In this document: piece by piece, positions 1,175 to 45,978 of the stretch | How positions within the stretch are numbered: the first letter of the stretch is position 1 | Layout of the letters: every line of letters starts with the position of its first letter | DNA from: Candidatus Omnitrophota bacterium | Lineage (GTDB): Bacteria > Omnitrophota > Gorgyraeia > Gygaellales > Profunditerraquicolaceae | Direction of reading: 5' to 3' | Length of the DNA stretch: 64,000 nucleotides | Assembly (NCBI GenBank): GCA_049517335.1 | Contig: JBEKSD010000001.1 | Span: forward strand, 32,001 to 96,000 | Position numbers and translations under genes: made by a program | The notes under the pieces: generated by a model | Databases searched by the model: none | What the model was told of the DNA's origin: nothing | What the model saw: the letters and a program-made list of their open reading frames with translations, nothing else

Positions 1175-4069
1175 ATGCAGTATAAGATCGAAATAGCCGA
1201 TAAACGGGGAGTCTTTGATGCCGTGGGTGAAGGCATCTTGAAGGACATCCGGGACTTAGGCATAAATTCCGCAAAGAAAGTAAAATTCATTCAGATTTAT
1301 ACTATTGAAGGGGATATTCCGGATATCCAGATAGAAAATATCTGCAGCGAACTTCTTACCGACAAAATCTCGCAGGATTATATTATTGATGGGCGCGAAC
1401 CCGCGAACTCAGGAACCCGCGAACAATTTATTATTGAAGTCGCCTATAATCCCGGCGTCATGGACCCGGTAGAAGATTCCACTTTAAAAGGTATCCGTGA
1501 CTTGGGAATTGAAGCTGCACTTGCCATTAGGACCGCCAAGAAATACATTATCCGCGGTAAACTTACCAGGCAGGAACTTAAAACTATCTCGGAAAAGCTC
1601 CTCTACAATAAACTTATACAGCATATTGTGCGGCCGGGGGAAGAGATAAAACACGCCGAAGCTTCCTATGAATTTAAGCTTATTAGCGTAGATTTATTAG
1701 CTAGAGGCGATAAAGAGCTGCTTGAGCTAAGCAGGAAGGGTCAGCTCTTTTTAAATTTAAACGAGATGCGCGCGATAAAAGATTATTTCAAGAAGCTCAA
1801 ACGTAACCCCACAGATTGCGAACTGGAGACCGTTGCCCAGACCTGGTCAGAGCATTGTTACCATAAGACTTTCCGTGGGAAAATATATTATAAAGAGAAG
1901 GGTAAAAATTTTAAAAAACTCAAAGCTAAAAAAATAGACGGCCTGCTTAAGTCTACGATTATGAAGGTTACTAAAGAGCTGAATAAGCCGTGGTGCGTTT
2001 CGGTTTTTAAGGATAACTCCGGGGTAATTAAATTTGACGATAAACATAATGTTTGCTTTAAGGTGGAAACCCATAATCATCCTTCGGCATTAGAGCCTTT
2101 CGGCGGAGCAAACACCGGAATAGGTGGGGTTATCCGTGACCCCTTAGGTACAGGCTTGGGCGCTAAGCCCATTTTAAACACGGATGTATTCTGTTTCGGC
2201 CCTCCGGAATTGCCTTTTAGCAAAGTGCCTGAAGGTTCTCTTCATCCTAAGCGGGTGATGAAAGGCGTGGTTTCCGGGGTGCGCGATTACGGGAATAAAA
2301 TGGGGATCCCTACGGTAAACGGGGCAGTGCTTTTTCATGAAGGCTTTGTGGGAAACCCGCTGGTTTACTGCGGCACAGCCGGGATTATGCCTAAAGATAA
2401 ATCTTTTAAGAAAACCAATATAGGGGATTTGGTCGTGCTGGTAGGAGGCAGGACCGGCAGGGACGGGATTCACGGCGCGACATTTTCATCGGGTGAGCTT
2501 ACCCATGAATCGGAGAAAGTTTCTTCAGGAGCAGTGCAGATCGGTAACCCTATTCAGGAAAAGAAAGTCTTAGACGGGATTTTGAAAGCGCGCGACCTTA
2601 ATTTATATACCGCAATAACTGACTGCGGAGCAGGCGGCCTCTCCAGCGCGGTCGGGGAAATGGGTGCTGACACGGGCGCAAGGGTTGACCTTGATAAAGT
2701 GCCTTTGAAATATTCCGGGTTAAGCTACATGGAGATCTGGATTTCAGAGTCTCAGGAGAGGATGGTTCTATCGGTTGCCCCGGAAAAAATTGGGGAGCTG
2801 CTGAAAGTATTTAATGATGAGAATCTGGAGGCAACTGTAATCGGTAAATTTAGCGCTAGTAAAAAATTAGAGCTGTATTATAAAAATAATCTGGTTTGTA
2901 ATATGGATATGCAGTTTTTGCATGGCGGGCCGCCGAAAATAAGCAAAGAGGCGGTATTCATTCAGCCAAAACATAAAGCGCCAAAAATCCCGCTTAAAAA
3001 AGAGCTGAGTAAATCGCTCCTTAGCTTGCTTAGTCATTATGATATTGCCTCCAAGGAGTGGATTATCAGGCAGTATGACCATGAGGTGCAGGGTGGCTCG
3101 GTGTTAAAGCCTTTAACAGGCATTGTCAACGACGGGCCCTCAGATGCCAGTATCAGTAAGCCACTGCTTGATTCTAAAAAAGGCGTTATTCTAGCAAATG
3201 GGATAAATTTCCGCTTCGGTTTTATTGACCCTTATTGGATGGCAGCTTCCTGTATCGATGAAGCTCTACGCCAGGTTATTTCAGTAGGCGGTTCTTTAAA
3301 GAGGACAGCGATACTGGATAATTTCTGCTGGGGAAATCCGGATAAGCCTGACCGCTTAGGAGGTTTGGTACGTGCTGCTTATGGTTGTTATGACGCTGCA
3401 AAAGGCTTCTCTGTACCTTTTATTTCCGGGAAGGACAGCCTTTATAATGAATACATGGTGAAGGGGAAATCTTTAAGTATACCCGGTACGCTTTTAATTT
3501 CGGCCATAAGCATCATGGATGATGTTCAGGAAGCTGTTTCCATGTATACAAAAGAAGCCGGAGACCTGATCTATATAGTGGGTGAAACTTTTGCTGAATT
3601 AGGCGCTTCGCATTATTATGATTTATGCGGCGTGATTGGCAATAATGTCCCTAAAGTGAATATGAAGAAGGCGAGACTTATTTTTGATAGTCTTACCAAG
3701 GCAACTTCGTCTGGGTTAATCAAGGCAATGCATGATTGTTCTGACGGCGGGCTGGGTGTAGCGGCTGCGGAAATGGCTTTTGCCGGCGGCTTGGGGATGG
3801 AGCTGTTTTTGTCCGAGGTTCCCTATAAGTCTAAAGAAAAAAGAAATGATTTTATATTATTTTCCGAATCCAACTCCCGTTTTATAGTCGAGGTTGATAA
3901 GGATAAGCAGAAACAATTTGAAAGGCTGCTTAAAGGTCTTCCTTTTGGTTTAATCGGATGTGTTAGAGATAAGAAATATTTTAAAGTTTACGGCCTGGAT
4001 TCCGAGGTTTGCCTTCAGGCGGATATAAAAGATTTAAAAGAGGCGTGGCAAAAACCATTTAGCTGGTGA
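1175..4069 (+). CDS. purL: Phosphoribosylformylglycinamidine synthase PurL with two N-terminal PurS-like domains
   Basis: QTWSEHCYHK, KVETHNHPS, DCGAGGLSSA, SESQERM, ISGKDSL motifs; N-terminal 150 aa has two PurS-like repeats. Confidence 0.96.
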   Translation: MQYKIEIADKRGVFDAVGEGILKDIRDLGINSAKKVKFIQIYTIEGDIPDIQIENICSELLTDKISQDYIIDGREPANSGTREQFIIEVAYNPGVMDPVEDSTLKGIRDLGIEAALAIRTAKKYIIRGKLTRQELKTISEKLLYNKLIQHIVRPGEEIKHAEASYEFKLISVDLLARGDKELLELSRKGQLFLNLNEMRAIKDYFKKLKRNPTDCELETVAQTWSEHCYHKTFRGKIYYKEKGKNFKKLKAKKIDGLLKSTIMKVTKELNKPWCVSVFKDNSGVIKFDDKHNVCFKVETHNHPSALEPFGGANTGIGGVIRDPLGTGLGAKPILNTDVFCFGPPELPFSKVPEGSLHPKRVMKGVVSGVRDYGNKMGIPTVNGAVLFHEGFVGNPLVYCGTAGIMPKDKSFKKTNIGDLVVLVGGRTGRDGIHGATFSSGELTHESEKVSSGAVQIGNPIQEKKVLDGILKARDLNLYTAITDCGAGGLSSAVGEMGADTGARVDLDKVPLKYSGLSYMEIWISESQERMVLSVAPEKIGELLKVFNDENLEATVIGKFSASKKLELYYKNNLVCNMDMQFLHGGPPKISKEAVFIQPKHKAPKIPLKKELSKSLLSLLSHYDIASKEWIIRQYDHEVQGGSVLKPLTGIVNDGPSDASISKPLLDSKKGVILANGINFRFGFIDPYWMAASCIDEALRQVISVGGSLKRTAILDNFCWGNPDKPDRLGGLVRAAYGCYDAAKGFSVPFISGKDSLYNEYMVKGKSLSIPGTLLISAISIMDDVQEAVSMYTKEAGDLIYIVGETFAELGASHYYDLCGVIGNNVPKVNMKKARLIFDSLTKATSSGLIKAMHDCSDGGLGVAAAEMAFAGGLGMELFLSEVPYKSKEKRNDFILFSESNSRFIVEVDKDKQKQFERLLKGLPFGLIGCVRDKKYFKVYGLDSEVCLQADIKDLKEAWQKPFSW
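1394..1425 (+). repeat. 4 x 8-bp degenerate tandem repeat inside purL
   Basis: CGCGAACC-CGCGAACT-CAGGAACC-CGCGAACA, encoding REPANSGTREQ. Confidence 0.8.
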
Positions 4070-4089
4070 AAAAACCGAGGGGAGGGAGT

Positions 4090-4746
4090 ATGCAAAAACA
4101 GCGCATAATCAAGAAAGACTTTACTCAGGAAGATACCTGGCGCATGTTCCGTATTATGGGCGAATTTGTTGACGGATTTGAAGTCCTCTCTCAGGTGGGC
4201 AAGGCGGTTTCCATTTTCGGCTCAAGCCGTTCTAGGTTTAATAACAAGTATTATAAATTTGCCGAAGAGATAGCTTATCTTTTAGCCAAATCCGGCTACG
4301 CTATTATTACCGGCGGCGGGCCGGGAATAATGGAGGCTGGTAACCGCGGTGCCCGGCGCGCCGGAGGGCTCTCCATTGGTTTAAATATCCAGATCCCCAC
4401 GGAGCAGAAGGCCAATGCCTATATTGATACGCTCCTTGATTTTCATTATTTTTTCGTGCGCAAAGTGATGTTCGTTAAATATGCCAAGGCATTTGTGATC
4501 ATGCCCGGAGGATACGGTACGTTGGACGAGTTTTATGAAGCCATAAACCTGATTCAAACCGAGCGTATACCCAAATTCCCGGTTGTCTTATTCGGCAGCG
4601 ATTACTGGAAAGGTATGATTAAATGGCTTAAAGAGGTAGTTCTAAAAGACGGGAATATATATCCCTATGATTTAGACTTATTTAAAGTTACCGACAAACC
4701 GCAAGAAGTAGTAACGATAGTAAAGAAATTTTATGCCAAGCGTTAA
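4090..4746 (+). CDS. LOG family (TIGR00730-type) nucleotide phosphoribohydrolase
   Basis: TGGGPGIMEA, FFVRKVMF, PGGYGTLDE motifs; ATG 4090 follows GGAGGGAG. Confidence 0.92.
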   Translation: MQKQRIIKKDFTQEDTWRMFRIMGEFVDGFEVLSQVGKAVSIFGSSRSRFNNKYYKFAEEIAYLLAKSGYAIITGGGPGIMEAGNRGARRAGGLSIGLNIQIPTEQKANAYIDTLLDFHYFFVRKVMFVKYAKAFVIMPGGYGTLDEFYEAINLIQTERIPKFPVVLFGSDYWKGMIKWLKEVVLKDGNIYPYDLDLFKVTDKPQEVVTIVKKFYAKR

Positions 4747-5515
4747 AGTTTGCATTTTGAGGACAGCCGGGACAAATTGCGATAAGGAAACCGCGTTTGC
4801 CTTTACAGCTGCGGGTGGGACAACTGAATTTGTGCATATCAAGGAATTGGTTGAAGGCAGGAAGAACCTTGTCAATTTCCAGATTCTTGTCCTCCCCGGA
4901 GGTTTTAGTTACGGAGATGATATTGCCTCGGGGAAAATATTGGCCAATGAGATGGTGAATAAATTATCGGCAGATTTAATGAAATTCATCCGTGACGGTA
5001 AATTGATCATCGGGATATGTAACGGCTTCCAAATACTGGTAAAAAGCGGCCTGCTTCCGGGAGGCCCAGGATTAAAACAGGAAACAAGCTTGATTATTAA
5101 TGACTCGGGGAAGTTTGAAGACCGCTGGGTGTATTTACGCAAATCTCACGATAAATGCGTTTGGACAAAAAATCTTGCCCCAATAATTTATTTGCCGGTT
5201 GCGCATGGAGAGGGAAAATTTGTTGTCCAGGATAGAACTGTTTTAGCAAGATTAAAGCGTAACGACCAGATTGTTTTCCAGTATTGCGATGAAAGAGCTA
5301 AACTGGAAGGATATCCCTATAATCCCAACGGTTCAAAGGAAAATATCGCTGGCATTTGCGATGAGACAGGCAGGGTTTTCGGCCTGATGCCTCATCCTGA
5401 AAGGCACATTCAATTTACTCAGGCTCCCCGCTGGACGTCTACTGCTAAAGCAGGCGCAGGCGACGGGATGCAGATATTCAGGAATGGAGTGGAATATGCG
5501 AGAGCTAAACTATAG
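4733..5515 (+). CDS. purQ: FGAM synthase glutaminase subunit
   Basis: PGGFSYGD, GICNGFQIL, AHGEG, MPHPER. Confidence 0.97.
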   Translation: MPSVKVCILRTAGTNCDKETAFAFTAAGGTTEFVHIKELVEGRKNLVNFQILVLPGGFSYGDDIASGKILANEMVNKLSADLMKFIRDGKLIIGICNGFQILVKSGLLPGGPGLKQETSLIINDSGKFEDRWVYLRKSHDKCVWTKNLAPIIYLPVAHGEGKFVVQDRTVLARLKRNDQIVFQYCDERAKLEGYPYNPNGSKENIAGICDETGRVFGLMPHPERHIQFTQAPRWTSTAKAGAGDGMQIFRNGVEYARAKL

Positions 5516-6947
5516 CGACGAAGCAAAAGAATATTGCGGCCTTTTCGGAATTGTTAACCACGCACACGCAAGCTGGCTCACCTACATGGGGCTTTACGCC
5601 CAGCAGCACCGGGGGCAGGAAGCCTGTGGGATAGCGGTGAATAATAAAGGTATTTTGACGATACACAAGAATATGGGGTTAGTCAGTGATGTATTTAACG
5701 AAGAGATCCTGGCCAAGTTAAAAGGGAATATGGCGGTGGGCCATGTGCGTTATTCTACTACCGGCTCAAGCGTATTGAAAAATTCCCAGCCGCTTTTAAT
5801 TGATTATGCCAAGGGCTCTATTTGTATCGCGCATAACGGAAACTTGGTAAATTCATTCCAGTTGCGCCGCTATCTGGAAAAAACCGGTTCCATTTTCCAG
5901 ACTACAACCGATTCCGAGATTGTAATTCATTTAATGGCGCGCTCCCGTTCCATGGATTTGGAAGAAAGCCTGATATATGCCTTAAAAAGAATTAAAGGCG
6001 CCTATTCATTGGTGATGATGGATAATAAGCATTTAATCGGAGTAAGGGACCCGTTGGGTTTTCGGCCGCTGTGCCTGGGTAAATTCGGCAACGCCTGGTG
6101 CCTGGCTTCGGAGACCTGCGCCTTTGATCTGATCGGCGCTAAATTCGTGCGCGAAATAGAGCCAGGTGAAATAATCATCATCAGCGAAAATGTGGTTAAG
6201 ATAATTAAGCCTAAAGAACTGCAGTTTAAGCGCAGGCACGCCTTCTGTACTTTTGAGCATGTATATTTTTCGCGGCCTGATTCGGTGGTCTTCGGTGAGA
6301 CCGTGCATTTGGTCAGAAGAAAGCTGGGGGAGGAGCTGGCGCGCGAGCATCCGGTGGATGCTGATTATGTTGTTCCTGTTCCCGATTCGGGGTATTCCGC
6401 GGCATTAGGATACGCCAAAGAATCCGGGATTCCTTTAGAAATGGGGATTATCCGTAACCACTATGTAGGAAGAACCTTTATCCAGCCGGCGCAGGATACG
6501 CGCGATCTGGGAGTAAGGGTAAAATTCAATTTTATGAAAGCTGTGCTTAAGGGCAAGCGCATCGTTATAGTGGATGATTCCATTGTCCGTGGAACAACTT
6601 CCAAGATACGCGTGCGTAATTTAAGGCGCATCGGCGTAAAAGAAGTGCATTTGCGGATATCCTGCCCGCCGCACCGTTTCCCCTGCTTTTACGGGATAGA
6701 TTTCCATAAGTCATCGGAACTGATCGCCAATAAATACGAGTCAATTGAAAAAATAAGGCAGTATTTGGGCGTTGATACTCTGGGGTATTTAAGCTTGGAA
6801 GGTATGCAGAAATGTATGAAGTGCGCCAAGAATTTCTATTGTAATGCCTGCTGGACGGGGAAATACCCGGTCAGGGCAGAGAAGAAACACAGCAAATTCT
6901 CTCTCGAAGAACATTGCTGCGGCCAAGGAGAGTTAGAAGCATGTTAA
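5496..6947 (+). CDS. purF: Amidophosphoribosyltransferase
   Basis: Propeptide then CGLFG, QHRGQE, GHVRYST, PRPP motif VDDSIVRGTT, Fe-S cysteines. Confidence 0.97.
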   Translation: MRELNYSDEAKEYCGLFGIVNHAHASWLTYMGLYAQQHRGQEACGIAVNNKGILTIHKNMGLVSDVFNEEILAKLKGNMAVGHVRYSTTGSSVLKNSQPLLIDYAKGSICIAHNGNLVNSFQLRRYLEKTGSIFQTTTDSEIVIHLMARSRSMDLEESLIYALKRIKGAYSLVMMDNKHLIGVRDPLGFRPLCLGKFGNAWCLASETCAFDLIGAKFVREIEPGEIIIISENVVKIIKPKELQFKRRHAFCTFEHVYFSRPDSVVFGETVHLVRRKLGEELAREHPVDADYVVPVPDSGYSAALGYAKESGIPLEMGIIRNHYVGRTFIQPAQDTRDLGVRVKFNFMKAVLKGKRIVIVDDSIVRGTTSKIRVRNLRRIGVKEVHLRISCPPHRFPCFYGIDFHKSSELIANKYESIEKIRQYLGVDTLGYLSLEGMQKCMKCAKNFYCNACWTGKYPVRAEKKHSKFSLEEHCCGQGELEAC

Positions 6948-7933
6948 CCTATAAGAAAGCAGGAGTAGATATATCAAGCGTAGCTGCCTTTAAAAACAAA
7001 CTGAAACCGTTAGTGAAGAAGTCTTTTAGGCCAGAAGTTTTAAAAGATATCGGAGGATTTGGGAGTTTTTTCAGGTTAAATAAGGATAAATACAAAGACC
7101 CGATCCTTGTTTCTTCTTCAGACGGCGTGGGCACAAAGCTTAAGATTGCGAAGTTAGTGAATAAACACGATACCGTAGGCATTGACGCAGTGGCTATGAA
7201 CGTAAATGATATTCTATGTACGGGAGCAGAGCCACTATTCTTTTTAGATTACATTGCCTTTACAAAAGTTAAAGAAGAAATATTGCTTGATCTGGTCAAA
7301 GGCATAAATGACGGCTGTATTGAATCAGGCTGTTCCTTAATCGGCGGTGAAACCGCGCAAATGCCCGGGATGTATAGGATAGATGAATACGATATTGCCG
7401 GTTTTTGTGTAGGTGTAGTTGAGAGAAAAGATATCATTGATGGTTCAAAGATTACAGCAGGAGATTTAGTTATCGGATTGGAGTCAAGCGGGTGTCATTC
7501 CAACGGTTATTCATTAGTGAGGAAGGTTTTCTCTTTAACAGAACAGAAAAGGATGGCTAAAGAATTACTTACCCCGACCAGAATTTATGTAAAACCAGTG
7601 TTAAGCTTATTACCCGAGGTAAATATACACGGCATTGCCCATATTACGGGTGGTGCTTTTTATGATAAAATTAGCCGTATTTTACCGGCTAACATAAATG
7701 TGCGCATAAATAAAGGCTCTTGGAATGTCCCGAAAATATTCAGGCTTATTCAGAACAAAGGGAATGTTAGGGAGTGCGAAATGTATCACACTTTGAATAT
7801 GGGTATCGGTATGGTTTTGATAGTCAAGCCGGATGCGGCCAAGAATATAATTTCAAAGTTTACTGCTTTGAAGCTTAAAGCATGGGTTATCGGTGCAGCG
7901 GTTAAGGGAAAGAAGGAAGTAGAGCTAGTTTAA
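6941..7933 (+). CDS. purM: AIR synthase
   Basis: YKKAGVD, DGVGTK, GGETAQMP, HSNGYSL, HITGG. Confidence 0.97.
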   Translation: MLTYKKAGVDISSVAAFKNKLKPLVKKSFRPEVLKDIGGFGSFFRLNKDKYKDPILVSSSDGVGTKLKIAKLVNKHDTVGIDAVAMNVNDILCTGAEPLFFLDYIAFTKVKEEILLDLVKGINDGCIESGCSLIGGETAQMPGMYRIDEYDIAGFCVGVVERKDIIDGSKITAGDLVIGLESSGCHSNGYSLVRKVFSLTEQKRMAKELLTPTRIYVKPVLSLLPEVNIHGIAHITGGAFYDKISRILPANINVRINKGSWNVPKIFRLIQNKGNVRECEMYHTLNMGIGMVLIVKPDAAKNIISKFTALKLKAWVIGAAVKGKKEVELV

Positions 7934-7950
7934 AAAAGGGGGTAAGTGCT

Positions 7951-8817
7951 ATGAATATCGTTTTCTTATTGGTAATTATCGCAGTCGTCGCATTTTTAAT
8001 GGGCATCAGGATAGTTAGACCTACGCATCGCGGGCTGATCGAGAGATTCGGTAAATACAACCGTTTTGCTAATCCCGGTTTTAACTGGATTATCCCGGTT
8101 ATGGAGAAAATATATCCGGTAAATATCACCGAGCAGATGGTGGATGCCGAGCCGCAGGAGATTATTACCAATGATAACTTAAACGCTAAAGTTGACGCGC
8201 AGGTTTACTTTAAAGTTAAGCCGGCTGAAACGGATGTAAAATGTGCAATTTACAATGTGTATAATTATGAGTATCAGATAGTAAACCTTGCCCGTACCAC
8301 ATTAAGGAATATTATCGGTACCCTCACCTTAAAATCAGCCAACAGCGAGCGCGGTAAGATTAATGCCGAGCTGCACAGGACCTTGATGGAGGAAACTTCA
8401 AACTGGGGTATTGAAATTGTCAGGACAGAATTAAAAGAAATCGACCCTCCGAAAGACGTGCAGGAGACAATGAATAAAGTAGTTAAGGCGGAGAATGAGA
8501 AGATTGCCGCGGTTGATTTTGCGACTGCCACTGAAACTGTTGCTGATGGCCAGAAGCGCGCAGAGATTAAGAAAGCAGAAGGTATCAAGCAGGCGCGTAT
8601 TTTGGAGGCAGAAGGAGAAGCAGCGGCAATAAAATTAGTAAATGAAGCAGCGGAACATTATTTTGTGGGTAATGCGCAAGTACTGCGCAAATTAGAAGCA
8701 GTTGAGAAGTCATTGCAGAATAACGCAAAAATTGTTGTTCCCGCGAATACAGAATTAGTTAATGTAATTGGTGAAATGGCAGGTTTTCTGCCGCTTAAAA
8801 CCGAAACGAAAAAATAG
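7951..8817 (+). CDS. SPFH/band 7 (stomatin-like) membrane protein
   Basis: N-terminal TM helix, ERFGKY..PG, ITNDN, C-terminal AEG repeats. Confidence 0.92.
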   Translation: MNIVFLLVIIAVVAFLMGIRIVRPTHRGLIERFGKYNRFANPGFNWIIPVMEKIYPVNITEQMVDAEPQEIITNDNLNAKVDAQVYFKVKPAETDVKCAIYNVYNYEYQIVNLARTTLRNIIGTLTLKSANSERGKINAELHRTLMEETSNWGIEIVRTELKEIDPPKDVQETMNKVVKAENEKIAAVDFATATETVADGQKRAEIKKAEGIKQARILEAEGEAAAIKLVNEAAEHYFVGNAQVLRKLEAVEKSLQNNAKIVVPANTELVNVIGEMAGFLPLKTETKK

Positions 8818-8853
8818 GCAGGAAAAAGAAGCAGTATTAAGAAGGAGGGTAAT

Positions 8854-9153
8854 ATGGGTGTGTATAATGTTATGCAGGCACTTGCGTTAGTTCCTGTGAC
8901 AATGTTTCTGACAGTTAGTTTTTTTGTATTATTTGTGGCGCGCAAAACCGATATGCAAGACTTAAAAATATTCGGGTATGTAGTAGTAGCACTGCTTTGG
9001 ATTTGTGCGATTTCGATGTTCACTACGGGGATTCATGCATCTTTATCCCGGGGTGGGATGATGCCTATGAGACGCGGCATGATGATGCAGGAGAAGCAGA
9101 TGGCTCCTACTCCAATGCCGAACAGCCCAACAACGACGCATCAGGCAAAATAA
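8854..9153 (+). CDS. Small two-TM membrane protein with Met-rich C-terminal tail
   Basis: Strong SD (AAGGAGG), two hydrophobic helices, GGMMPMRRGMMMQEKQM tail. Confidence 0.75.
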   Translation: MGVYNVMQALALVPVTMFLTVSFFVLFVARKTDMQDLKIFGYVVVALLWICAISMFTTGIHASLSRGGMMPMRRGMMMQEKQMAPTPMPNSPTTTHQAK

Positions 9154-9183
9154 TCGTTTTCCAGAGTGCACGCCTTAGGAATA

Positions 9184-9504
9184 ATGGCAAATATTATTGA
9201 AAAAGTGGGAAGCTTGGTTAGTTTGGTAGATTATCAAGACAGTTCTGTTGTTAGTAAAGAAGTTATTAAAAAAGAAAAAGGCACGGTAACGCTTTTTGCT
9301 TTTGATAAAGGGCAGGGGTTAAGTGAACATACCGCGCCATTTGATGCCTTAGTTTATATCTTTGACGGCAAAGCAGAAATTAGTATCGCCGGCAAGCAAC
9401 ATTACTTAAAAGCAGGCGAAACTATTATTATGCCAGCAAATAAGCCGCATTCTCTAAAGGCCATAGATCGCTTTAAGATGCTTTTGGTAATGATTAAGGC
9501 TTAA
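9184..9504 (+). CDS. Cupin domain protein
   Basis: TLFAFDKGQGLSEHTAPFDA and MPANKPHSL cupin motifs. Confidence 0.9.
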   Translation: MANIIEKVGSLVSLVDYQDSSVVSKEVIKKEKGTVTLFAFDKGQGLSEHTAPFDALVYIFDGKAEISIAGKQHYLKAGETIIMPANKPHSLKAIDRFKMLLVMIKA

Positions 9505-9562
9505 TCTGATATTAGAGCAAGAATAACTAATATTTTGCATAAGAGGAGTTGATTAAGAAAAA

Positions 9563-9892
9563 ATGTTATTAATTATCAGAGAGAAGGCGAGCGAGGAGAT
9601 TATTTCTAAGGTTGCTGAAGATCTTAAGGGATATATTAAAGTGGTTGTAGATGTCCGGCGTAAGATTTTGTCTGCCGGTGGGAAAATGCATGTGGATGGC
9701 GAAAGGCTGCTTCTGGAAGACGGAAGTAAACAGGCAGATATCTGGGGAGGCGGTTTAGACATTGAGTCCGGAGAGGTTGATTTTGATTCAATGATTAATT
9801 TAAGGCCAGGGCAAAATAATCCTAGCCGGGAAGTTTTAGATTCCGCTATACGCAAACAGATAGAAGTAATTATTCGTGCAATATTAAGGTAA
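9563..9892 (+). CDS. Conserved hypothetical protein (DUF5674-like)
   Basis: IKVVVDV..GG.MH.D.E..LL..GS.Q.DIWG, FDSMINLRP.Q.N pattern recalled for DUF5674. Confidence 0.75.
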   Translation: MLLIIREKASEEIISKVAEDLKGYIKVVVDVRRKILSAGGKMHVDGERLLLEDGSKQADIWGGGLDIESGEVDFDSMINLRPGQNNPSREVLDSAIRKQIEVIIRAILR

Positions 9893-9895
9893 ATA

Positions 9896-10183
9896 ATGAG
9901 CGCGCAAGAAATAATATTGAATATTGCTGTAAATTTAGGACGAATTGGAAGATATGCCTATGAGGGCAAGTGTTCCCGAGTCGAACAATTCTTAAATGAA
10001 ACAGATGAATATGTCCGTCAACTCGAGTCAATACCTTTAAAGCCGCGTTTTAAAGGAACATTCTATGATTTTAAGAAATCTTTAAATGAATTAGAGAAAG
10101 ATATGCGTTTAGATACATTTTGGGCAGAAACAGCCTATACTTGGGCTAATATTTTGACTCATCGCGCAAAATTAGCGGGTTAA
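9896..10183 (+). CDS. Hypothetical all-helical protein, partner of DUF5674 gene
   Basis: 95-aa ORF starting 3 nt after upstream stop, amphipathic helices, fills the gap to purD. Confidence 0.7.
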   Translation: MSAQEIILNIAVNLGRIGRYAYEGKCSRVEQFLNETDEYVRQLESIPLKPRFKGTFYDFKKSLNELEKDMRLDTFWAETAYTWANILTHRAKLAG

Positions 10184-10192
10184 AGAAATAAT

Positions 10193-36740: not shown

Positions 36741-36802
36741 CTTCGGGGGTACCCTGGTGATAACATATATAAATTCGCCGTTTTACGGAGGAAATTTTTA
36801 AG

Positions 36803-37840: not shown

Positions 37841-39740
37841 GGTTTTAGGCCCGCTTTTTAGGTCTTTACCAGTCGGTTTCTGCTATTTTTTCGGCAAGGC
37901 CTTGGGTTTTTTTATTTATCATCTTGACAGGCGGCACAGGGAGATAGCCTACGCCAATATCAAAGAAGCGCTTGGACTCAAATTTAAGCCAAATGAAATT
38001 TCCGGCATCACCAAAAGTTTCTATCAGTCTTTCGGCCAGAGCATAATTGAGCTCTTTCTTATTCCCCGTATTGATAAAAAATATTTGAAGAAGTATGTTG
38101 ACCTTGTGGGAGAAAAGAATATCCATAATGCGCTTAAGAAAGGCAGGGGGGTTATTTTGCTTGTGGTGCATGAATGCGGCTGGGAGCTTTCCAATATTGT
38201 CGCAGCTTCTTTAGGCGTTCCTTTCAATGTAATTGTCCGCGACCAGGGTTTACCCCGCTTAAACGGCCTGTTAAATGATTTCCGCCGCCAAAAAGGCGCC
38301 AAAGTGATAAGCAGAGGCGGGGAATTACGACAGCTGGTTTCGGCACTAAAAAATAACGAATCTGTGGCAATGACTTTGGATCAGGGAGGCTCAAGCGGTG
38401 AGTTGGTTAAGTTTTTCGGCAGGAACGCTTCAATATCTAGCGGGGCAATCAGGCTGGCTTTAAAATACGGCACAGAGGTCCTGCCGGTTTTCTTTGAGAG
38501 AACCAGGGGCGCTTATGCGCGGATAATTATAAATGCGTCGCTTAAGATAGAGAAGAGCGGGAATCCGGAAGAAGATTTGCATAATAATTTGCAGAAAGCC
38601 ATAAATATTTTTGAAGGACATATTGCCGCGCATCCTAAGGAGTACCTTTGGACTTATAAAATCTGGAAATATAGCGATTTAAAAAGGGTTTTGCTGCTTT
38701 CGGACGGGTTGCCCGGCCATTTACGCCAGGTGCAGGCGGCTGCAGAGATTATCAAAGAACTCCTTAAAGAAAAAGGGGCTCAAACCGAACTGCGCAGCGA
38801 GGTACTTGCTTTCCGGAATAAAGCCGCTAAAACCGCTTCTCTTTTAAGCAGTTGTTTTGCCTCAAAATTCAGCTGTCAAGGTTGTTCATTATGCCTGAAA
38901 AAATTACTCAAAAAAGGTAGCTACGACAGCTTAAGCCTTTATAAACCGGATATTGTGATTTCCTGTTCTTCTTCTGTATCTGGAATCAATTATATTATTG
39001 CCAAGATTAATATGGCTAAATCAATTGTAATCATGCGCCCCTCCTTATTAAACTTAAATAAGTTTGATTTAATCATTGCGCCTAAACATGATAACTTAGG
39101 CAGAAAAAAGAATGTTTTAGAAATAAACGGCGCTCTAAATTTGATTAACGAGGGATACCTTAAAACTCAAGGCAACCTGCTTAAAGAATACATCCCCGGC
39201 TATAACCCCAAAGCCATTTATATCGGCGTATTAATCGGAGGGGACAGCAAAAAATTTAAGCTCATTGAGGGAATGATGAGAGAACTTATTCTTGAATTAA
39301 AGAAAGCAGCAGATGAGTTTGATACCGGAATCCTGCTGACTACTTCGCGCAGGACGCCGGAGAAAATAGAAACACTCCTTAAGGATGAGTTTAAGGATTA
39401 TCCTCGCGCCAAACTGCTGGTCATTGCCAATGAAAATAATATCCCGCAGACTGTAGGAGGGATTTTAAGCTTAAGCAGCGTCATCGTAACCAGCCCAGAG
39501 AGTATCTCAATGGTTTCAGAAGCTGCAAGCAGCGGAAAACCAACCATCGTTTTTAACATGCCCAGACTTTCTAAAAAGCATAAGACTTTCCTTCAGAATC
39601 TTTCTCAGGATAGGTTCATTTGCTTGATTAAAATTAATGAAGTGGCCGGGAACATAAAAACCCTATTAACACCGGGAAATAAGCTTAATAAGCTTGACGA
39701 CGCTATCCTGGTAAAGGAAGCGTTAAGGAAAATACTATGA
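37794..39740 (+). CDS. Lipid A late acyltransferase (LpxL/HtrB-like) fused to ELM1/GtrOC1-like domain
   Basis: HECGWE, DQ, VKFFG, P.EYLW..K.WK; C-terminal SDGLPGH, TTSRRTP, SISMVSEAASSGKP. Confidence 0.82.
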   Translation: MKKNSSADYSAFILLKVLGPLFRSLPVGFCYFFGKALGFFIYHLDRRHREIAYANIKEALGLKFKPNEISGITKSFYQSFGQSIIELFLIPRIDKKYLKKYVDLVGEKNIHNALKKGRGVILLVVHECGWELSNIVAASLGVPFNVIVRDQGLPRLNGLLNDFRRQKGAKVISRGGELRQLVSALKNNESVAMTLDQGGSSGELVKFFGRNASISSGAIRLALKYGTEVLPVFFERTRGAYARIIINASLKIEKSGNPEEDLHNNLQKAINIFEGHIAAHPKEYLWTYKIWKYSDLKRVLLLSDGLPGHLRQVQAAAEIIKELLKEKGAQTELRSEVLAFRNKAAKTASLLSSCFASKFSCQGCSLCLKKLLKKGSYDSLSLYKPDIVISCSSSVSGINYIIAKINMAKSIVIMRPSLLNLNKFDLIIAPKHDNLGRKKNVLEINGALNLINEGYLKTQGNLLKEYIPGYNPKAIYIGVLIGGDSKKFKLIEGMMRELILELKKAADEFDTGILLTTSRRTPEKIETLLKDEFKDYPRAKLLVIANENNIPQTVGGILSLSSVIVTSPESISMVSEAASSGKPTIVFNMPRLSKKHKTFLQNLSQDRFICLIKINEVAGNIKTLLTPGNKLNKLDDAILVKEALRKIL

Positions 39741-41830
39741 ATGTTTTACAGGTATTGCCCCAATTAAATGTAGGCGGCGTTGAGACAGGTACGCTTGACT
39801 TTGCCAGATATCTGGTTAAGGGAGGGCACAAAGCTGTAGTGGTTTCAGCAGGAGGAGCCCTGGTAGGAGAACTGGAATCTTCCGGGGCTGTTCACTATCA
39901 GTTGCCGGTGGAAAGGAAATCATTAGTTAAAATGCTAAAAGCTGTTCCGGCTCTGGTTGAGATAATTAAAAAAGAAAAAATTGACATCGTCCATGCGCGT
40001 TCCCGCGTGCCTGCCTGGATAGCTTATTTTGCCTGCCGCCGCACCAACGCTGTTTTTATCACTACCTGTCACGGTTATTATAGGAAACATTTTTTCAGCT
40101 CGGTAATGGGATGGGGTAAGCGGGTAATCGTTTTAAGTAACATTATCGGCAGGCACATGATTGAGGATTTTTCCGTCCCATATGAGCGCATAAGGTTGGT
40201 TCCCCGCAGCGTGGATTTGGAGAAGTTTAAATATATAAGCCCTGACACAAAGAGAAAAGATGAGTTCAATATCGGCATAATCGGCAGGATCACGCCTTTA
40301 AAAGGACACCTGCATTTTATAAAAGCGATGGCCAAAGTTTACCGCGTAATTCCGCGCTTGAAAATCTGGATTGTCGGAGAGGCACCGGTTTCCAAACAGG
40401 TATATAAAGAGCAGGTCCAGCTTTTAGTCAGGAGGCTGGGCTTAAGCCATTGCACCGAATTCTTAGGTACGCAAAGAGATATACCCGGTATCTTAGCTAA
40501 CCTTGACCTGCTGGTCTTAGCGACAACCACCCATGAGGCCTTCGGCAGGGTAATCCTGGAAGCGCATGCTTCAGGAGTGCCGGTTGTAGCGACAAAAGTC
40601 GGCGGGGTGGTGGATATTATTGACGACGGCTTAACCGGCCTGCTGGTTAACCCCGCAGACCCCGGCAGTATGGCTGAGGCAGCACTTAAGATATTCAAGG
40701 ATAAGCAGCTGGCCCGCTCGCTCGCTGAGAACGCTTACAGGAAAGTAAAAGAAAAATACAATGTTGAGCTTATGGTTAAAAATACGCTTGATGTCTACCA
40801 TGATGCGCTGAACAATTTTAAAATCCTGATCATTAAACTAAGTTCTTTAGGCGATATCATCCTTTCAACTGCCGCGATAAGGGCTATAAGAGAGAAATTC
40901 GGGCAGCATTATAAAATCAGTTTTCTTATCGGGGAAGAATCAAAGGATGCGCTTTTAAGGTGTCCTTATATTGACGAATTATTGGTCGCGGATTTTCAGG
41001 GTAAAGACAGAGGGTTTAAGGGCCTACTCAAGATGGTCGCGGATTTAAAAAAGAAGTGTTTTGATATAGTTATTGATTTGCAGAATAACAGGAAGAGTCA
41101 TATCTTGTCATATCTTTCTTTGGCGCTTAAACGCTACGGGTACGATAATAAGAAGTTCGGATTTCTCTTGAATTACCGCATTAAAGACGCTAAGGCGCCT
41201 ATTGACCCGGTTACGCATCAGTTCAGGATTTTAAAAATGCTGGGGATAGATTTAAAAGATAACCGGCTTGAACTCTGGCCGTCTAAAGAAGACGAGGAGC
41301 ACGTTGAAAGTTTCCTGAATACCCAGTGGTTAAGCCCGAACCAGAAATTAGTGGGAATCAATATTTCAGCCAGCCCGCGCTGGCTTACTAAGAGCTGGCC
41401 GGAAAAACATATAGTAAAACTCTGCGAGGAACTGGGTTTTAAGGATATGCGCGTTGTCCTTACCGGCACGGAAAAAGATATCCCTTACGCAGAGTCGTTA
41501 ACCAACAGCGTTAAGAATACTAAATTAATAAACGCCTGCGGCACGACTTCGGTGAACCAACTGGCATGCCTGATTAAAAGGTGTGGCGTATATATTTCAG
41601 CGGATTCTTCTCCGTTGCATATCGCCTCAAGTGTCGGCACGCCTTTTATCGCCCTGTTCGGTCCGACTGACCCGCGAAGACATCTGCCGCCCTCCGCAAA
41701 TAATTATATTTTAATAAAAAAGGATATATCCTGCAGCCCGTGTTATAAGCCTGAATGCAGAAGCAAGAGGTGCCTAGAGCTGATAACCCCGCAGGAAGTA
41801 TTGGAAGCAGTAGAAAAACTAATAAAGTGA
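39737..41830 (+). CDS. GT4-GT9 glycosyltransferase fusion
   Basis: GGVE, HARSR, EAFGRVILEA (GT4); SSLGDII, KSWP, DSSPLHIA, LFGPT (GT9). Confidence 0.9.
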   Translation: MNVLQVLPQLNVGGVETGTLDFARYLVKGGHKAVVVSAGGALVGELESSGAVHYQLPVERKSLVKMLKAVPALVEIIKKEKIDIVHARSRVPAWIAYFACRRTNAVFITTCHGYYRKHFFSSVMGWGKRVIVLSNIIGRHMIEDFSVPYERIRLVPRSVDLEKFKYISPDTKRKDEFNIGIIGRITPLKGHLHFIKAMAKVYRVIPRLKIWIVGEAPVSKQVYKEQVQLLVRRLGLSHCTEFLGTQRDIPGILANLDLLVLATTTHEAFGRVILEAHASGVPVVATKVGGVVDIIDDGLTGLLVNPADPGSMAEAALKIFKDKQLARSLAENAYRKVKEKYNVELMVKNTLDVYHDALNNFKILIIKLSSLGDIILSTAAIRAIREKFGQHYKISFLIGEESKDALLRCPYIDELLVADFQGKDRGFKGLLKMVADLKKKCFDIVIDLQNNRKSHILSYLSLALKRYGYDNKKFGFLLNYRIKDAKAPIDPVTHQFRILKMLGIDLKDNRLELWPSKEDEEHVESFLNTQWLSPNQKLVGINISASPRWLTKSWPEKHIVKLCEELGFKDMRVVLTGTEKDIPYAESLTNSVKNTKLINACGTTSVNQLACLIKRCGVYISADSSPLHIASSVGTPFIALFGPTDPRRHLPPSANNYILIKKDISCSPCYKPECRSKRCLELITPQEVLEAVEKLIK

Positions 41831-42891
41831 ACATTTTATATTTAGCCAACCATTTAAATACCGGTGGCATCACCAGTTATTTATTCAGCCTTGCTTCGGG
41901 GATGAAGAAGAAAGGCCACAATGTCTTTATAGCGTCGCACTCAGGGGAGAGCCTTGATAAATTCTTAAAGCTCGGCGTAAACTTTATTGAAATTCCGATT
42001 AAGACCAAAAAGGAAATAAGCCCGAGCGTTATTTTTAGTTACCTTAAGCTAAGGAATAAATTAAAAAAGAACAAAATAGACATTGTGCATTCTAACAGCC
42101 GCACCACGCAGGTATTGGGATGCCTTTTAAATAAATTTGAAAACATTGCGCACGTGTCAACCTGTCACGGTTATTTTAAAAGAAGGCCGCTGCGTCTAAT
42201 CTTTCCCTGCTGGGGAATGAAGGTCATCGCTATAAGCGAGCAGGTGAAAGAGCACCTTATGCATGATTTCAAACTGGATGAAGGCTGTATCAGGGTAATC
42301 AATAACGGAATAGACATAGATAGGTTTAGAATTAAAAAGGGCCTGGCTTACAGGGACGGCCCGGTAGTGGGCATAATCGCGCGGCTTTCCGATGTAAAAG
42401 GGCATATCTACTTAATCCGGGCAATGAAAATAGTTCTGGAGAAATTCCCTTCGGCAAAGCTGCTTGTTGTCGGAGAAGGAAAGATGTATAATATATTGCT
42501 AAGGTTAGTGGAAGAGCTGAATATTGAGAAGCATGTTGAATTTATCATGCGCACAGAAGATACAAGGATAGAATTAGCTGCAATGGATGTCTTTGTCATG
42601 CCGTCGTTAAAAGAAGGGTTAGGATTGGCGCTTATGGAAGCGATGACCAGCGCTAAGGCGGTTGTGGGAACCGATGTCGGTGGGATTAAAAGCCTGATTA
42701 AGGATAAGGTAAACGGTTTACTGGTTAAGCCGGCTGACCCGGAAGGTTTAGCCGGCGCAATTAGCGAACTGTTGAGTAATCCTACACAGGCTGAAACTTA
42801 TGCTCAGGCAGCGGCAAGGTTTATCGCAGAAAACTTCCCGCTTGATAAAATGGTTAATCAGACCGAGAAGGTCTATTTGGAATGCGTATAA
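41827..42891 (+). CDS. GT4 glycosyltransferase
   Basis: GTG start overlapping upstream stop; KGH, EGLGLALMEAM. Confidence 0.9.
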   Translation: MNILYLANHLNTGGITSYLFSLASGMKKKGHNVFIASHSGESLDKFLKLGVNFIEIPIKTKKEISPSVIFSYLKLRNKLKKNKIDIVHSNSRTTQVLGCLLNKFENIAHVSTCHGYFKRRPLRLIFPCWGMKVIAISEQVKEHLMHDFKLDEGCIRVINNGIDIDRFRIKKGLAYRDGPVVGIIARLSDVKGHIYLIRAMKIVLEKFPSAKLLVVGEGKMYNILLRLVEELNIEKHVEFIMRTEDTRIELAAMDVFVMPSLKEGLGLALMEAMTSAKAVVGTDVGGIKSLIKDKVNGLLVKPADPEGLAGAISELLSNPTQAETYAQAAARFIAENFPLDKMVNQTEKVYLECV

Positions 42892-42913
42892 AGTACCGCT
42901 AAGGATAAAAAGA

Positions 42914-43942
42914 ATGGAAGTAACTAAGCGCATACTCATTTTTAATGTCAATTGGCTCGGCGATGTTTTATTTTCTACTGCCGCAATAAGGAATATCCGC
43001 AGGAATTTCTCCTCAAGCTATATTGCCTGCGTTATCCCCAGCCGCTGTTATCCGGTATTAAAAGACAACCCGCATTTGGATGAAATCATCATATTTGATG
43101 AGAAAGATCGGCATAAGAGCATCTTTTCCCGCCTTGATTTCATAAAAATACTCAAAGCAAAGAAGTTTGATACGGTATTCCTGTTGCACCGGTCGCTCAC
43201 CCGCGCGCTTATTTGTCGCCTTGCCGGCATACCGAAAAGGATAGGCTATTACACGAAAAAACGCGGCTTTCTGCTTACAAAAAAGATAACTATGCCTAAA
43301 ATAAATACTCTTCACCGCATTGATTATTACCTGAATATTATAGAAAAAGCGGGTCTTAAGGTGGAAGACAGGTATACGGAATTTTTTATTACCCATGAAG
43401 ATGAAGAATCGGTGGACGCCTTCCTGAAGAAGAATTCGATAGGAAAAGGTGATTTTATTGCGGTTTTAAACCCTGGAGGGAATTGGGGCCCTAAGAGATG
43501 GCCTAAGGAATATTGGAGCGAGCTTGCCAATATGCTCTCCAACGGCTTTAAAGCGAAAGTAATCTTAAGCGGAGCGCAAAATGATTTGAATTTAGCCAAC
43601 CAGATTAAGATGGCGATGAAGGAAAGGCCGATAATTGCCTGCGGCGTCCTGAATCTGAAGCAGCTGGCCGCACTTGCCAAAAGAGCCGGACTTTTTATCA
43701 CCGGCGATACCGGGCCGCTGCATATTGCCAATGCGGTCGGAGCAAAAAGGATCATTGCTTTATTCGGGCCGACAGACCCGTTTCTGACCGGCCCGTTTCC
43801 CGCAAATAACGTAATTGTCATCCGCAAAGACGTAAATTGTAAAATCCCCTGTTACCAGGTAAACTGTAAAGACAATCGCTGCATGAAAGCGATAACCCCC
43901 AAAGACGTAATTAGTGAAGTTAATAAAATACTCCATAAATAA
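42914..43942 (+). CDS. GT9 LPS heptosyltransferase (WaaF-like)
   Basis: NWLGDV, KRWP, DTGPLHIA, LFGPT. Confidence 0.9.
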   Translation: MEVTKRILIFNVNWLGDVLFSTAAIRNIRRNFSSSYIACVIPSRCYPVLKDNPHLDEIIIFDEKDRHKSIFSRLDFIKILKAKKFDTVFLLHRSLTRALICRLAGIPKRIGYYTKKRGFLLTKKITMPKINTLHRIDYYLNIIEKAGLKVEDRYTEFFITHEDEESVDAFLKKNSIGKGDFIAVLNPGGNWGPKRWPKEYWSELANMLSNGFKAKVILSGAQNDLNLANQIKMAMKERPIIACGVLNLKQLAALAKRAGLFITGDTGPLHIANAVGAKRIIALFGPTDPFLTGPFPANNVIVIRKDVNCKIPCYQVNCKDNRCMKAITPKDVISEVNKILHK

Positions 43943-43944
43943 TA

Positions 43945-45978
43945 ATGGACAGAAAAATAAGTAGGATTTTATTTATTACTTTAAGTAATATCGGCGATTG
44001 CATTATGACTTTACCTACTCTGGATATGCTTATTTCCCGTTATCCTCAGGCTCAAATTACGGTGATGTCCGGTCCGCGTACAAAAGAAATATTTGAAAAT
44101 AACCCCAATATTCATAAATTTATTCTCTACGATAAACATTCCACGCTAAAAGAGAATATCAAACAGCTCAATGAATTAAAAAAGGAAAATTTTGATTTGG
44201 TCGTAGATTTGCGCAATACTTTCTTCGGCGTATTTTTGCCGACTCATATCAAAACGTCTCCGTTTTTGTTTATCCCCAAAGAAATAAGGCACATGCGGGA
44301 CAGGCATCTTTATCAGCTCGGGGCCCGGGCTGCGGAGCTCAAGGCTAAAACTGAAGCGAAGTCGTTATATATAAGCCGTAAAGACCAAGAGTATGTAGAA
44401 AATTTATTTAAGGAAAACGGCATTCTTCCGGAGAGCAGGATAGCGGCGGTTGCTCCGGGAACACGCAGCCATATAAAAAGATGGCAAAAAGAGAAGTTTG
44501 CGGAGCTTATTTCTTCATTAGGTAAAGAATTCGGCCTTAAGATAATTCTCATTGGCGATAAGGAAGATTCAGAGGTTGCCAGGTTCATCAAAGATAATAC
44601 AGGCGCAGGAATAATTGATTTTACTTCTCGGACCACAATTACGCAGCTGGCCTGTCTTTTGAAGAAGGCTGAACTTTTGATTACCGGGGACAGTGGGGTA
44701 ATGCATTTGGCGAGTTATTTAAATGTCCCGGTAGCAGCGGTATTTGGGCCGACGGATGAAGAAAAATACGGGCCATGGTCAAAGGTAGCTTCAGTGATAA
44801 AAAAAGATATTTTCTGCCGGCCGTGCAGCAAGGCGCAATGTAAATTCGGCACCCTTGATTGCATGCGCGTAATAAAAACAACGGATGTCTTTTTGGCAGT
44901 AAAGGACATTTTGAACCCACGGACCTACGGACCCACGGACCCACGAATTAATGTTTTTAAGCGTATTCTAATCGTGCGTACCGATAGAATGGGCGATGTG
45001 CTTTTATCAACTCCTGTAATTAGGGTCCTGCGCCGGAACTTCCCGAATAGCTATCTTGCGATGATGGTTTCAGCCAGTACCAAAGATATCGTGGAAGGCA
45101 ACCCTTACTTGGATGAGGTGATTATTTATGATAAGGACGGAAGGCATAAAGGCTGGCAGCAGACCTTTAGATTCGCAAGAAACTTAAAAAAGAAGCGTTT
45201 TGATTTAGCGATAATATTGCATCCGACTAACAGGGTGCATCTGGTAACTTACTTGGCGGCTATACCGCGGCGCATAGGCTATGACAGGAAATTAAGTTTT
45301 TTACTTACAGATAGGATTCCACATACCAAGCAGTCAGGGCTAAAGCATGAATTAGAATACAATCTGGATCTGTTAAAATATCTGGGCATTGAAGCAGAAG
45401 ATAAAGAGTTATTTATGCCGGTTAAAAATGAATCGGAAAAAACTGTTGAAAAGATATTTGCGAGCTCCGGGATCAGAAAAACAGATAAAATACTTGCGAT
45501 ACATCCTTCTGCCAGCTGTCCGTCAAAGGTCTGGCCTGCGGATAGATTTGCGCAGGTTGCCGATATATTAGCGCAGGAACACGGTTTTAAAATTGTGGCT
45601 GTTTCGGGCCCGAAAGATATTGCCAGGACAGAGGATGTAATCAATAGGATGCATTGCGCGGTCATAGATTTAGCGGGGAAGGTTTCCGTCAGCCAGCTGG
45701 CGAGCGTGTTTAAAAGGTGCGCTCTTTTCATATCTAATGATTCCGGGCCGGTGCACATGGCTGCAGCTTTAGGTATTCCGGTTATCTCTATTTTCGGCAG
45801 GGCACAGGCGGGGTTAAGCCCGAAACGCTGGGCTCCGATGGGAAAAGCAGCAAGGGTTTTGCATAAACAGGTTGGCTGTATTGAGTGCCTGGCGCATAAC
45901 TGCCAAAAAGGGTTCGCCTGCCTTAAGGCAATCACCGTCGAAGAAGTCGTCTCTGCCGCCGAATCGCTTTTATCGTAG
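43945..45978 (+). CDS. Tandem GT9-GT9 heptosyltransferase-like protein
   Basis: Two complete GT9 motif sets (NIGD..DSGVMH..FGPT; RMGD..DSGPVH..FG). Confidence 0.9.
   Translation: MDRKISRILFITLSNIGDCIMTLPTLDMLISRYPQAQITVMSGPRTKEIFENNPNIHKFILYDKHSTLKENIKQLNELKKENFDLVVDLRNTFFGVFLPTHIKTSPFLFIPKEIRHMRDRHLYQLGARAAELKAKTEAKSLYISRKDQEYVENLFKENGILPESRIAAVAPGTRSHIKRWQKEKFAELISSLGKEFGLKIILIGDKEDSEVARFIKDNTGAGIIDFTSRTTITQLACLLKKAELLITGDSGVMHLASYLNVPVAAVFGPTDEEKYGPWSKVASVIKKDIFCRPCSKAQCKFGTLDCMRVIKTTDVFLAVKDILNPRTYGPTDPRINVFKRILIVRTDRMGDVLLSTPVIRVLRRNFPNSYLAMMVSASTKDIVEGNPYLDEVIIYDKDGRHKGWQQTFRFARNLKKKRFDLAIILHPTNRVHLVTYLAAIPRRIGYDRKLSFLLTDRIPHTKQSGLKHELEYNLDLLKYLGIEAEDKELFMPVKNESEKTVEKIFASSGIRKTDKILAIHPSASCPSKVWPADRFAQVADILAQEHGFKIVAVSGPKDIARTEDVINRMHCAVIDLAGKVSVSQLASVFKRCALFISNDSGPVHMAAALGIPVISIFGRAQAGLSPKRWAPMGKAARVLHKQVGCIECLAHNCQKGFACLKAITVEEVVSAAESLLS
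44915..44946 (+). repeat. 4 x 8-bp tandem repeat in GT9-GT9 linker
   Basis: ACCCACGG-ACCTACGG-ACCCACGG-ACCCACGA, encoding NPRTYGPTDPR. Confidence 0.9.

Follow-up and report, generated by a model that had tools for sequence, protein, structure and literature searches.

In-frame heptamer and octamer tandem repeats at protein linkers of Omnitrophota: two arrays in a PurS-PurS-PurL and a GT9-GT9 fusion gene

The window analyzed here is a 64,000-nt stretch of the genome of a Candidatus Omnitrophota bacterium (contig JBEKSD010000001.1). It contains two short arrays of 8-nt tandem repeats, each of which is translated as part of a fusion gene. The genes and their arrays are located as follows.

1175..4069, + strand: PurS-PurS-PurL fusion gene, 964 aa, host of array 1 (Pfam and internal PurS duplication)
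1394..1425, + strand: array 1, four 8-nt units, CGCGAACC, CGCGAACT, CAGGAACC and CGCGAACA, encoding REPANSGTREQ
43945..45978, + strand: GT9-GT9 fusion gene, 677 aa, host of array 2 (Pfam, two Glyco_transf_9 stretches)
44913..44949, + strand: array 2, GAACC followed by CACGGACC, TACGGACC, CACGGACC and CACGAATT, encoding NPRTYGPTDPRI

Pfam analysis of the open reading frame (ORF) at 1175-4069 identified PurS (residues 3-71), the FGAR-AT linker (residues 184-231), AIRS and AIRS_C, in that order, and the residues that follow array 1 (85-167) were found to form a second PurS domain with 36% identity to the first (E 3e-13). Array 1 encodes residues 74-84 and is the linker between the two PurS domains. 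The architecture is that of a PurS-PurS-PurL fusion (FGAM synthase), and 120 orthologues with the same Pfam set were annotated at their source as PurL or PurSL of Omnitrophota. Array 2 encodes residues 324-335 of the ORF at 43945-45978 and is the linker between two GT9 domains, which Pfam placed in tandem in a single chain; relatives of this protein were annotated at their source as heptosyltransferase II, and its orthologues were 665-716 aa long. Both fusions are conserved in Omnitrophota. An AlphaFold model of the GT9-GT9 protein, based on an alignment of 46 sequences, consisted of two Rossmann-type halves (mean pLDDT 86.7), with pLDDT below 50 at residues 327-334, between a helix (312-323) and a strand (340-344). 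The array 2 peptide was the sole long stretch of low confidence between the halves. The arrays are thus genuine, translated on the + strand and located at domain boundaries (sequence, TRF, Pfam and pLDDT), in agreement with the initial annotation of this DNA, which had placed them on the coding strand at interdomain linkers. The present role of the arrays is simply to encode two flexible linkers of 11-12 residues.

When analyzed with TRF, array 1 had a period of 8, with 3.9 copies, 73% matches and a score of 41, indicating partial decay, and the core of array 2 (44915-44945) also had a period of 8, with 3.9 copies, 91% matches and a score of 55. They were the only period-8 arrays with more than three copies in the window. 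Following dinucleotide shuffling of the window, none of 100 shuffled sequences contained any period-7 or period-8 array of at least 3.5 copies and a score of at least 41, compared with the two observed. Both sites have the properties of long-unit simple sequence repeats (units of 5-11 nt), namely at least three head-to-tail copies, occurrence above chance and a period at the nucleotide level, and at both of them the 8-nt unit is translated in three frames.

A 16-mer pattern with up to three mismatches matched the window eight times; seven matches were within the two arrays and one was a three-mismatch chance match. Single units were found seven times against 3.6 expected, a number reached in 10 of 100 shuffles, and were therefore not enriched. 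With a weaker array threshold, three arrays were detected across the whole window against a null mean of 2.65, so that this search added no arrays beyond chance. In addition, the window had no arrays at other sites that are hot spots in Omnitrophota (the GT9 N-domain loop, the GT4 linker and the LpxK C-terminal site). Marks of a mobile cassette at the two arrays, i.e., terminal inverted repeats, a target duplication or more copies in the 64 kb, were not found, nor did the window contain a second copy of either array sequence that could serve as the template repeat of a diversity-generating retroelement. The arrays were rejected as targets of such a retroelement on account of the missing nearby template repeat in the window, where genes were only partly annotated for reverse transcriptase. 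The initial annotation had considered template-directed repeat addition or the scars of a repeat-flanked cassette, and this was not borne out in the window: the 64 kb, with its genes only partly annotated, contained no other copies, flanking element or candidate enzyme.

Linkers were aligned from 120 orthologues of each protein, and 7- or 8-residue periods were visible in the aligned peptides, for example TNYQLPITNYQ, TSYELRVTSYE and PNTEHRTPNTE for GT9, and for PurS REPANPRTREQ and KPTNQQTNKPTN. Translation of a 7- or 8-nt unit through all three frames yields exactly this kind of periodic peptide. Each 10-residue linker window was compared with all stop-free periodic translations, with a fit defined as at least 8 of 10 residues, and segments of the same proteins were used as controls. 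A 7-nt unit fitted the GT9 linker in 58 of 119 orthologues (25 perfect; controls 1/329) and an 8-nt unit in four of 119, the window included at 9/10 (two perfect; controls 0/337). The PurS linker was fitted by an 8-nt unit in 15 of 120 orthologues (five perfect; controls 0/347) and by a 7-nt unit in eight of 120 (two perfect; controls 1/343). Nothing comparable was obtained in this test with periods of 6 and 9. The PurS peptide of the window has counterparts in two orthologues, P0127 (REPANPRTREQ) and P0162 (LEPANLRTREK). The first 260 residues of P0127 are 66% identical to those of the window protein, and its linker corresponds to a perfect CGCGAACC repeat read in three frames, while the linkers of P0144 and P0208 fit CGCAAACC. 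As argued initially, then, the period belongs to the nucleotide level and not to the peptide: orthologue DNA and the back-translation test both point to a unit of 7 or 8 nt that passes through all three reading frames. The occurrence of the same peptide in orthologues as conserved, non-repetitive sequence had been named initially as evidence against the proposal, and the outcome is mixed: the peptide does recur in P0127 and P0162, but it does so as a repeat.

The DNA sample consisted of 80 Omnitrophota loci around GT9-GT9 orthologues (1.19 Mb), or 81 sequences and 1.25 Mb with the window. An array in the GT9 linker (period 7 or 8, score at least 11, between conserved anchors) was present in 18 of 68 loci. 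The heptamers found at this one site included GGTGTCA, CCGAACA, GCCAACT, GAAGACA, GAGCACC, AGACCAA, ATTACCG/ATTGCCG and CCGTACC, and the DNA of locus L015 had an octamer, AGTCACAA. A TRF census of arrays of at least three copies in the 81 sequences, with the mean of ten dinucleotide shuffles as the null, gave 72 arrays of period 7 (shuffle mean 2.7) and 14 of period 8 (1.9), alongside seven of period 6 (2.6) and four of period 9 (1.0). At scores of at least 40, there were 41 period-7 arrays versus 0 in the shuffles and nine period-8 arrays versus 0.3. Placement was analyzed for the 91 arrays of period 7, 8, 14 or 16. Besides the GT9 linker, arrays were located in the GT4 interdomain linker, two LpxK loops, a loop of the first GT9 domain, KdtA, an LpxL-Elm1 fusion, the N-termini of LptC-LptA and KdsB, and intergenic DNA. 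At L018 (1242-1265), three perfect copies of CGCAAACC lie between the two halves of the Kdo transferase KdtA; this unit is one base off the purL unit of the window and is the same as the one deduced for the PurS linkers in P0144 and P0208. Taken as a whole, arrays of heptamers and octamers characterize Omnitrophota across the phylum. The two window arrays are not a private repeat family: the same linkers are periodic across the phylum with different units.

The arrays are not insertions: linkers are equally long with and without them. In DNA, the anchor-to-anchor length with an array versus without one was 29 vs 29 residues at the GT9 linker, 26 vs 26 at the GT4 linker and 39 vs 39 at the LpxK C-terminal site, and in the protein alignments the linkers measured 16 vs 16 aa (GT9) and 15 vs 15 aa (PurS). 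These lengths contradict the initial description of the repeats as inserted. The exceptions were seven residues longer and contained a small palindrome. In many orthologues, the periodicity was lost and the length was kept. Insertion of a mobile cassette or an element like a miniature inverted-repeat transposable element was ruled out by the equal lengths and by the absence of flanking repeats or further copies in the 64 kb.

Units change in concert along an array. Loci L009 (CCGAACA x4) and L035 (CCGAGCA x4) differ by the same A-to-G change in each unit and are almost identical in their immediate flanks, and a one-base unit change has likewise spread through the array between GTCACAA, a heptamer deduced from the peptide of P0004, and the L015 octamer AGTCACAA. 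Among 38 orthologues with a fit of at least 9/10, the largest single-linkage chain of single-substitution steps was 16. Flank identity was 0.84 for pairs with identical units and near 0.74 at unit distances of 1, 2 and at least 3. Apart from identical units, unit distance held no signal of relatedness, which implies that turnover is fast. The use of unit relatedness as a clock was rejected for the same reason, flank identity being flat (~0.74) beyond identical units.

These results suggest that the window arrays are probably simple repeats of a known type, with units of 7 or 8 nt, that pervade Omnitrophota and are homogenized in place within unconstrained linkers. Both would be ordinary, somewhat decayed members of a class of tandem repeats with 7-nt and, less often, 8-nt units. 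Coding arrays would survive only where the protein is unconstrained, i.e., in linkers between domains, in surface loops and in signal or anchor segments at the N-terminus, and would have to be stop-free in all three frames and, for soluble linkers, poor in T. They would occupy a length fixed by the protein and stay periodic in place. The constant length and the preserved frame point to homogenization by transient misalignment, in which the nascent strand would slip by one unit and then be corrected on its template. Concerted evolution that proceeds without a change in length would never break the frame.

The placement and composition of the arrays were also examined. Sixty-four of the 91 arrays fell within open frames 150 aa or longer, whereas 94% of bases lie in such frames, so that arrays are about five-fold enriched outside genes. 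The T fraction of the units was 0.21 in frames vs 0.32 outside, and 19 of the 64 in-frame units had no T. In a non-triplet unit, each base is once in the second codon position, where T leads to hydrophobic residues, and this accounts for the T-poor units within frames. T-rich arrays encode hydrophobic N-terminal segments, as at L040, where GTTTTTGG encodes VFLFLSFWIFGFLG in an LptC fusion. A-rich arrays followed by T-rich arrays were observed at the 5′ ends of ORFs at L040 (17370-17442), L018 (18140-18176), L048 (786-810) and L055 (522-551). The product of such a pair would be a basic stretch and, after it, a hydrophobic segment; in the LptC-LptA fusion of L040 these are KTKKPKNGKT and VFLFLSFWIFGFLG. 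Simple repeats thus seem to encode signal or anchor peptides at these 5′ ends.

In their best rotation on the same strand, the two window units agree at 6 of 8 positions. The probability of at least 6/8 was 0.04 with the composition of the window, 0.23 with that of the pooled arrays and 0.37 with each unit's own composition. The likeness is largely accounted for by both units being free, or almost free, of T. Seven of 88 between-genome pairs of period-8 units also reached 6/8. We infer that the likeness of the two units is mainly compositional, and it is weak evidence of a common origin. The initial annotation had reasoned that independent slippage was unlikely to converge on one unit; these probabilities do not support that view, and both units are T-poor, which is to be expected of hydrophilic linkers.

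A GC-rich palindrome, CTGCC...GGCAG (about 19-23 nt), was observed in frame inside heptamer arrays, where it adds seven residues. It occurs at L030 (8355, 10373 and 11003), L014 (8620), L036 (2907), L012 (1098) and L065 (2736), and encodes peptides such as LPVRQAGR and CLSGRQA; similar peptides are present in the linkers of P0040, P0058, P0097 and P0104. In the window, three loose regular-expression matches to the palindrome were found, none adjoining an array. Adjacent arrays with roughly reverse-complementary units were observed at L022 (9830-9965), L042 (7600-7715 and near 8731-8827), L044 (8615-8712) and L040 (17365-17447). These inverted pairs fold into long hairpins with arms of tandem 7- or 8-mers (z -4.5 to -9.3), and none of 200 shuffles folded as well. 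RNA folding of the two window arrays was unremarkable (z -0.55 and +1.82), and Rfam gave no match anywhere in the window.

Several observations weigh against in-place homogenization as the whole account. The census covered one neighbourhood, the lipopolysaccharide (LPS) gene cluster around GT9-GT9, rather than whole genomes, and the GT9 linker itself, the site used to fetch the loci, accounted for 16 of the 91 arrays; the periodicity of the PurS linkers was read from peptides only. Copy numbers level off at 3-5, with almost none above 5.3 (about 37 nt) and all longer arrays strongly degenerate, and simple slippage does not explain this cap. Perfect two-copy heptamer seeds were only 1.6 times as frequent as in the null (155 vs 96, homopolymers unfiltered). 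Both window arrays have a period of 8, yet only four of 119 GT9 linkers do, which hints at a genome-specific factor. Moreover, units and inserts are shared between unrelated genes, something that homogenization in place does not by itself predict. At L030, AG[AG]GTTC arrays occupy the linker of GT4 (8355), the N-domain loop of GT9 (10373) and the linker of GT9 (11003), and an identical 23-nt palindromic insert, CTGCCTGTCCGGCAGGCAGGCAG, splits the array at each of the three sites. At L018, one heptamer (7/7 by rotation) is common to the GT4 linker (8629) and the GT9 linker (11988), and L068 has four arrays with ACG[GA]A-type units. Heptamer pairs were more alike within genomes than between them: one of 2000 permutations reached the observed value for all pairs, and after removal of a possible duplication, 64 of 3000 label permutations reached the mean and 82 of 3000 the count of pairs with at least 6/7. 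A process linking arrays across loci exists in some genomes. It could consist of ectopic conversion among dispersed arrays or of a small mobile or templated element, giving each genome its own unit family, with the window arrays as two of its products. The occurrence of CGCAAACC and CGCGAACC in other genes and genomes (KdtA at L018, 1242; the PurS linkers of P0127, P0144 and P0208) and the rare period shared by the window arrays also speak for such a process. For this window, however, it is a minority reading and an unlikely one: the window units agree at only 6/8, many genomes (e.g., L009, L028 and L034) have unrelated units at their hot spots, arrays add no length, the likeness within genomes can be inflated by genome base composition, and target duplications, terminal repeats, further copies and a candidate enzyme were all absent from the window, with its genes only partly annotated. 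Thus the shared generating process suggested by the initial annotation holds in a form wider than two genes, being phylum-wide with units shared in some genomes, but the likeness of the window units, on which it had been based, is weak. A bolder version, which we offer tentatively and rather doubt, is that Omnitrophota actively rewrite unconstrained segments of ~25-35 nt in place with 7- or 8-nt units while keeping their length. This activity would pass units and the small palindromic insert between loci of one genome and would produce linkers, loops and signal or anchor peptides, the window arrays being two of its outputs, and it may need a dedicated enzyme.

The arrays might instead be cis-acting elements selected on RNA or DNA, with the linker peptide as a by-product; they could provide a platform on which a single-strand nucleic-acid-binding protein would have 4-5 sites (one protein per 7-8 nt) or form a DNA structure. 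Their persistence at the same sites across the phylum, the copy number capped near 4-5, the ~5-fold enrichment outside open frames and the hairpins of inverted pairs are all in line with this idea, and binders of the Csp/S1/Csr type were proposed for TAACTGA heptamer repeats (PMC4679880). Nevertheless, we regard it as improbable, as the unit at one site lacks conservation from species to species, many orthologues are aperiodic at unchanged length, and the window arrays have ordinary RNA folds and no Rfam match. A phase-variation (contingency) switch, in which gain or loss of a unit would shift the frame and uncouple or silence the downstream domain, is very improbable. Although non-triplet units in LPS glycosyltransferase genes are its classic setting and split GT9 pairs occur at L069 and L068, the arrays are short (up to about five units) and often imperfect, one of the two in the window lies in purL, a housekeeping gene, and translation continues in frame through the linker in 67 of the 69 loci with an anchor (of 81 sequences), L012 and L069 having stops upstream. 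That the window simply holds two unrelated chance repeats without a common cause is hardly credible: the likeness of the units taken alone is not significant, as this would require, but no shuffled window gave even one such array and dozens of orthologues have periodic sequence at these linkers. In-place homogenization of a phylum-wide repeat class accordingly remains our preferred explanation for both arrays.

Contingency loci in the LPS genes of Haemophilus, Neisseria and Campylobacter have long, perfect and polymorphic tracts near the 5′ end. The Omnitrophota arrays resemble them in being non-triplet repeats within glycosyltransferase genes but are short, often imperfect, located at interdomain linkers and present in purL as well. 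Rickettsia palindromic elements lie in frame inside genes, and the small dispersed repeats (SDR) of Nostoc, attributed to Elhai et al. in 2008, are reportedly very small mobile elements in heptamer arrays. The Omnitrophota palindrome resembles such elements; it lies in frame inside arrays, where it adds seven residues (three sites at L030, and L014 and L036). It is absent from the two window arrays, and its mobility is suggested by identical copies at three sites of one genome only. The STRR heptamers of heterocystous cyanobacteria, which Mazel is said to have described in 1990, are grouped here with the GGGNATC heptamer repeats.

Heptanucleotides are given as the most abundant class of long-unit repeats in most prokaryotic genomes, with polymerase slippage as the proposed origin (Mrazek 2007, via PMC4679880) and polymerase contact as the proposed reason for the ~7-nt preference (Mrazek et al. 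2007, via PMC4679880). The Omnitrophota arrays are like these prokaryotic long-unit repeats (Mrazek, Guo & Shah 2007) in that 7-nt tandem arrays occur far above chance in scattered bacteria. They differ in that the coding repeats of those reports have units that are multiples of three (PMC4679880, PMC4692102), whereas in Omnitrophota non-triplet units stand in frame at fixed linkers without a change in length. The GGGNATC repeats of Xanthomonas and Nostoc favour four units, and coding DNA holds fewer of them than expected (PMC4692102). Both systems have genome-spread heptamers with about four units, some inverted hairpin pairs and enrichment in non-coding DNA; GGGNATC, however, is one G-rich unit per organism that is linked to G-quadruplexes (PMC4692102), whereas the Omnitrophota units are diverse, mostly without G-tracts and in many cases translated. 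TAACTGA direct repeats are found in marine Beggiatoaceae and some cyanobacteria as heptamer arrays of 2-6 copies, a few of them inside ORFs, and in reverse orientation they encode the 7-residue peptide repeat LSVISYQ, features in which the Omnitrophota arrays are similar; the authors noted that proteins tolerate insertions at their ends or between modules (PMC4679880). In contrast to TAACTGA, which is a single conserved unit located mostly just upstream of start codons (PMC4679880), the units of Omnitrophota change at orthologous linkers. The literature searched yielded no account of heptamer or octamer arrays lying in frame at conserved linkers, or of such repeats in Omnitrophota.

Non-triplet repeats would normally be expected to be purged from coding DNA, and in this phylum they write the linkers of conserved enzymes of purine synthesis, lipid A and the LPS core. 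They offer a countable case in which fusion linkers and some N-terminal hydrophobic segments would be made and renewed from simple repeats, and in which concerted evolution runs inside ORFs without loss of frame. Omnitrophota are also a second, independent lineage, besides cyanobacteria, that combines heptamer arrays with tiny palindromic inserts, so that the 7-nt preference becomes testable by comparison. For annotation, a peptide period of 7 or 8 residues in these proteins should be taken as a by-product of the DNA and not as a structural motif.

A few further features were recorded. The GT9 pair is unfused in places: at L068 (1594-4080) an array with a 14-nt period separates two distinct GT9 open frames, L069 has a stop codon and then a start codon near 1029, just before the second GT9 domain (KRILVVRTDR), and L012 has a stop or frame change near 1152, upstream of the second GT9 domain. 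Within the second GT9 domain of the window (45537-45577), a 21-nt unit is present twice, with 85% matches and a TRF score of 61. Nearly all long ORFs of the window (1-64000) are on the + strand and the GC skew is positive throughout, with a cumulative skew that climbs steadily, the pattern of one replichore arm whose genes are co-oriented. Lastly, a weak period-7 match, TAAGGGA (3.1 copies), occurs at 52584-52605 of the window and at 19556-19577 of L018 in the same peptide context (LRDKGLGI), and it looks more like a conserved protein motif than an array.

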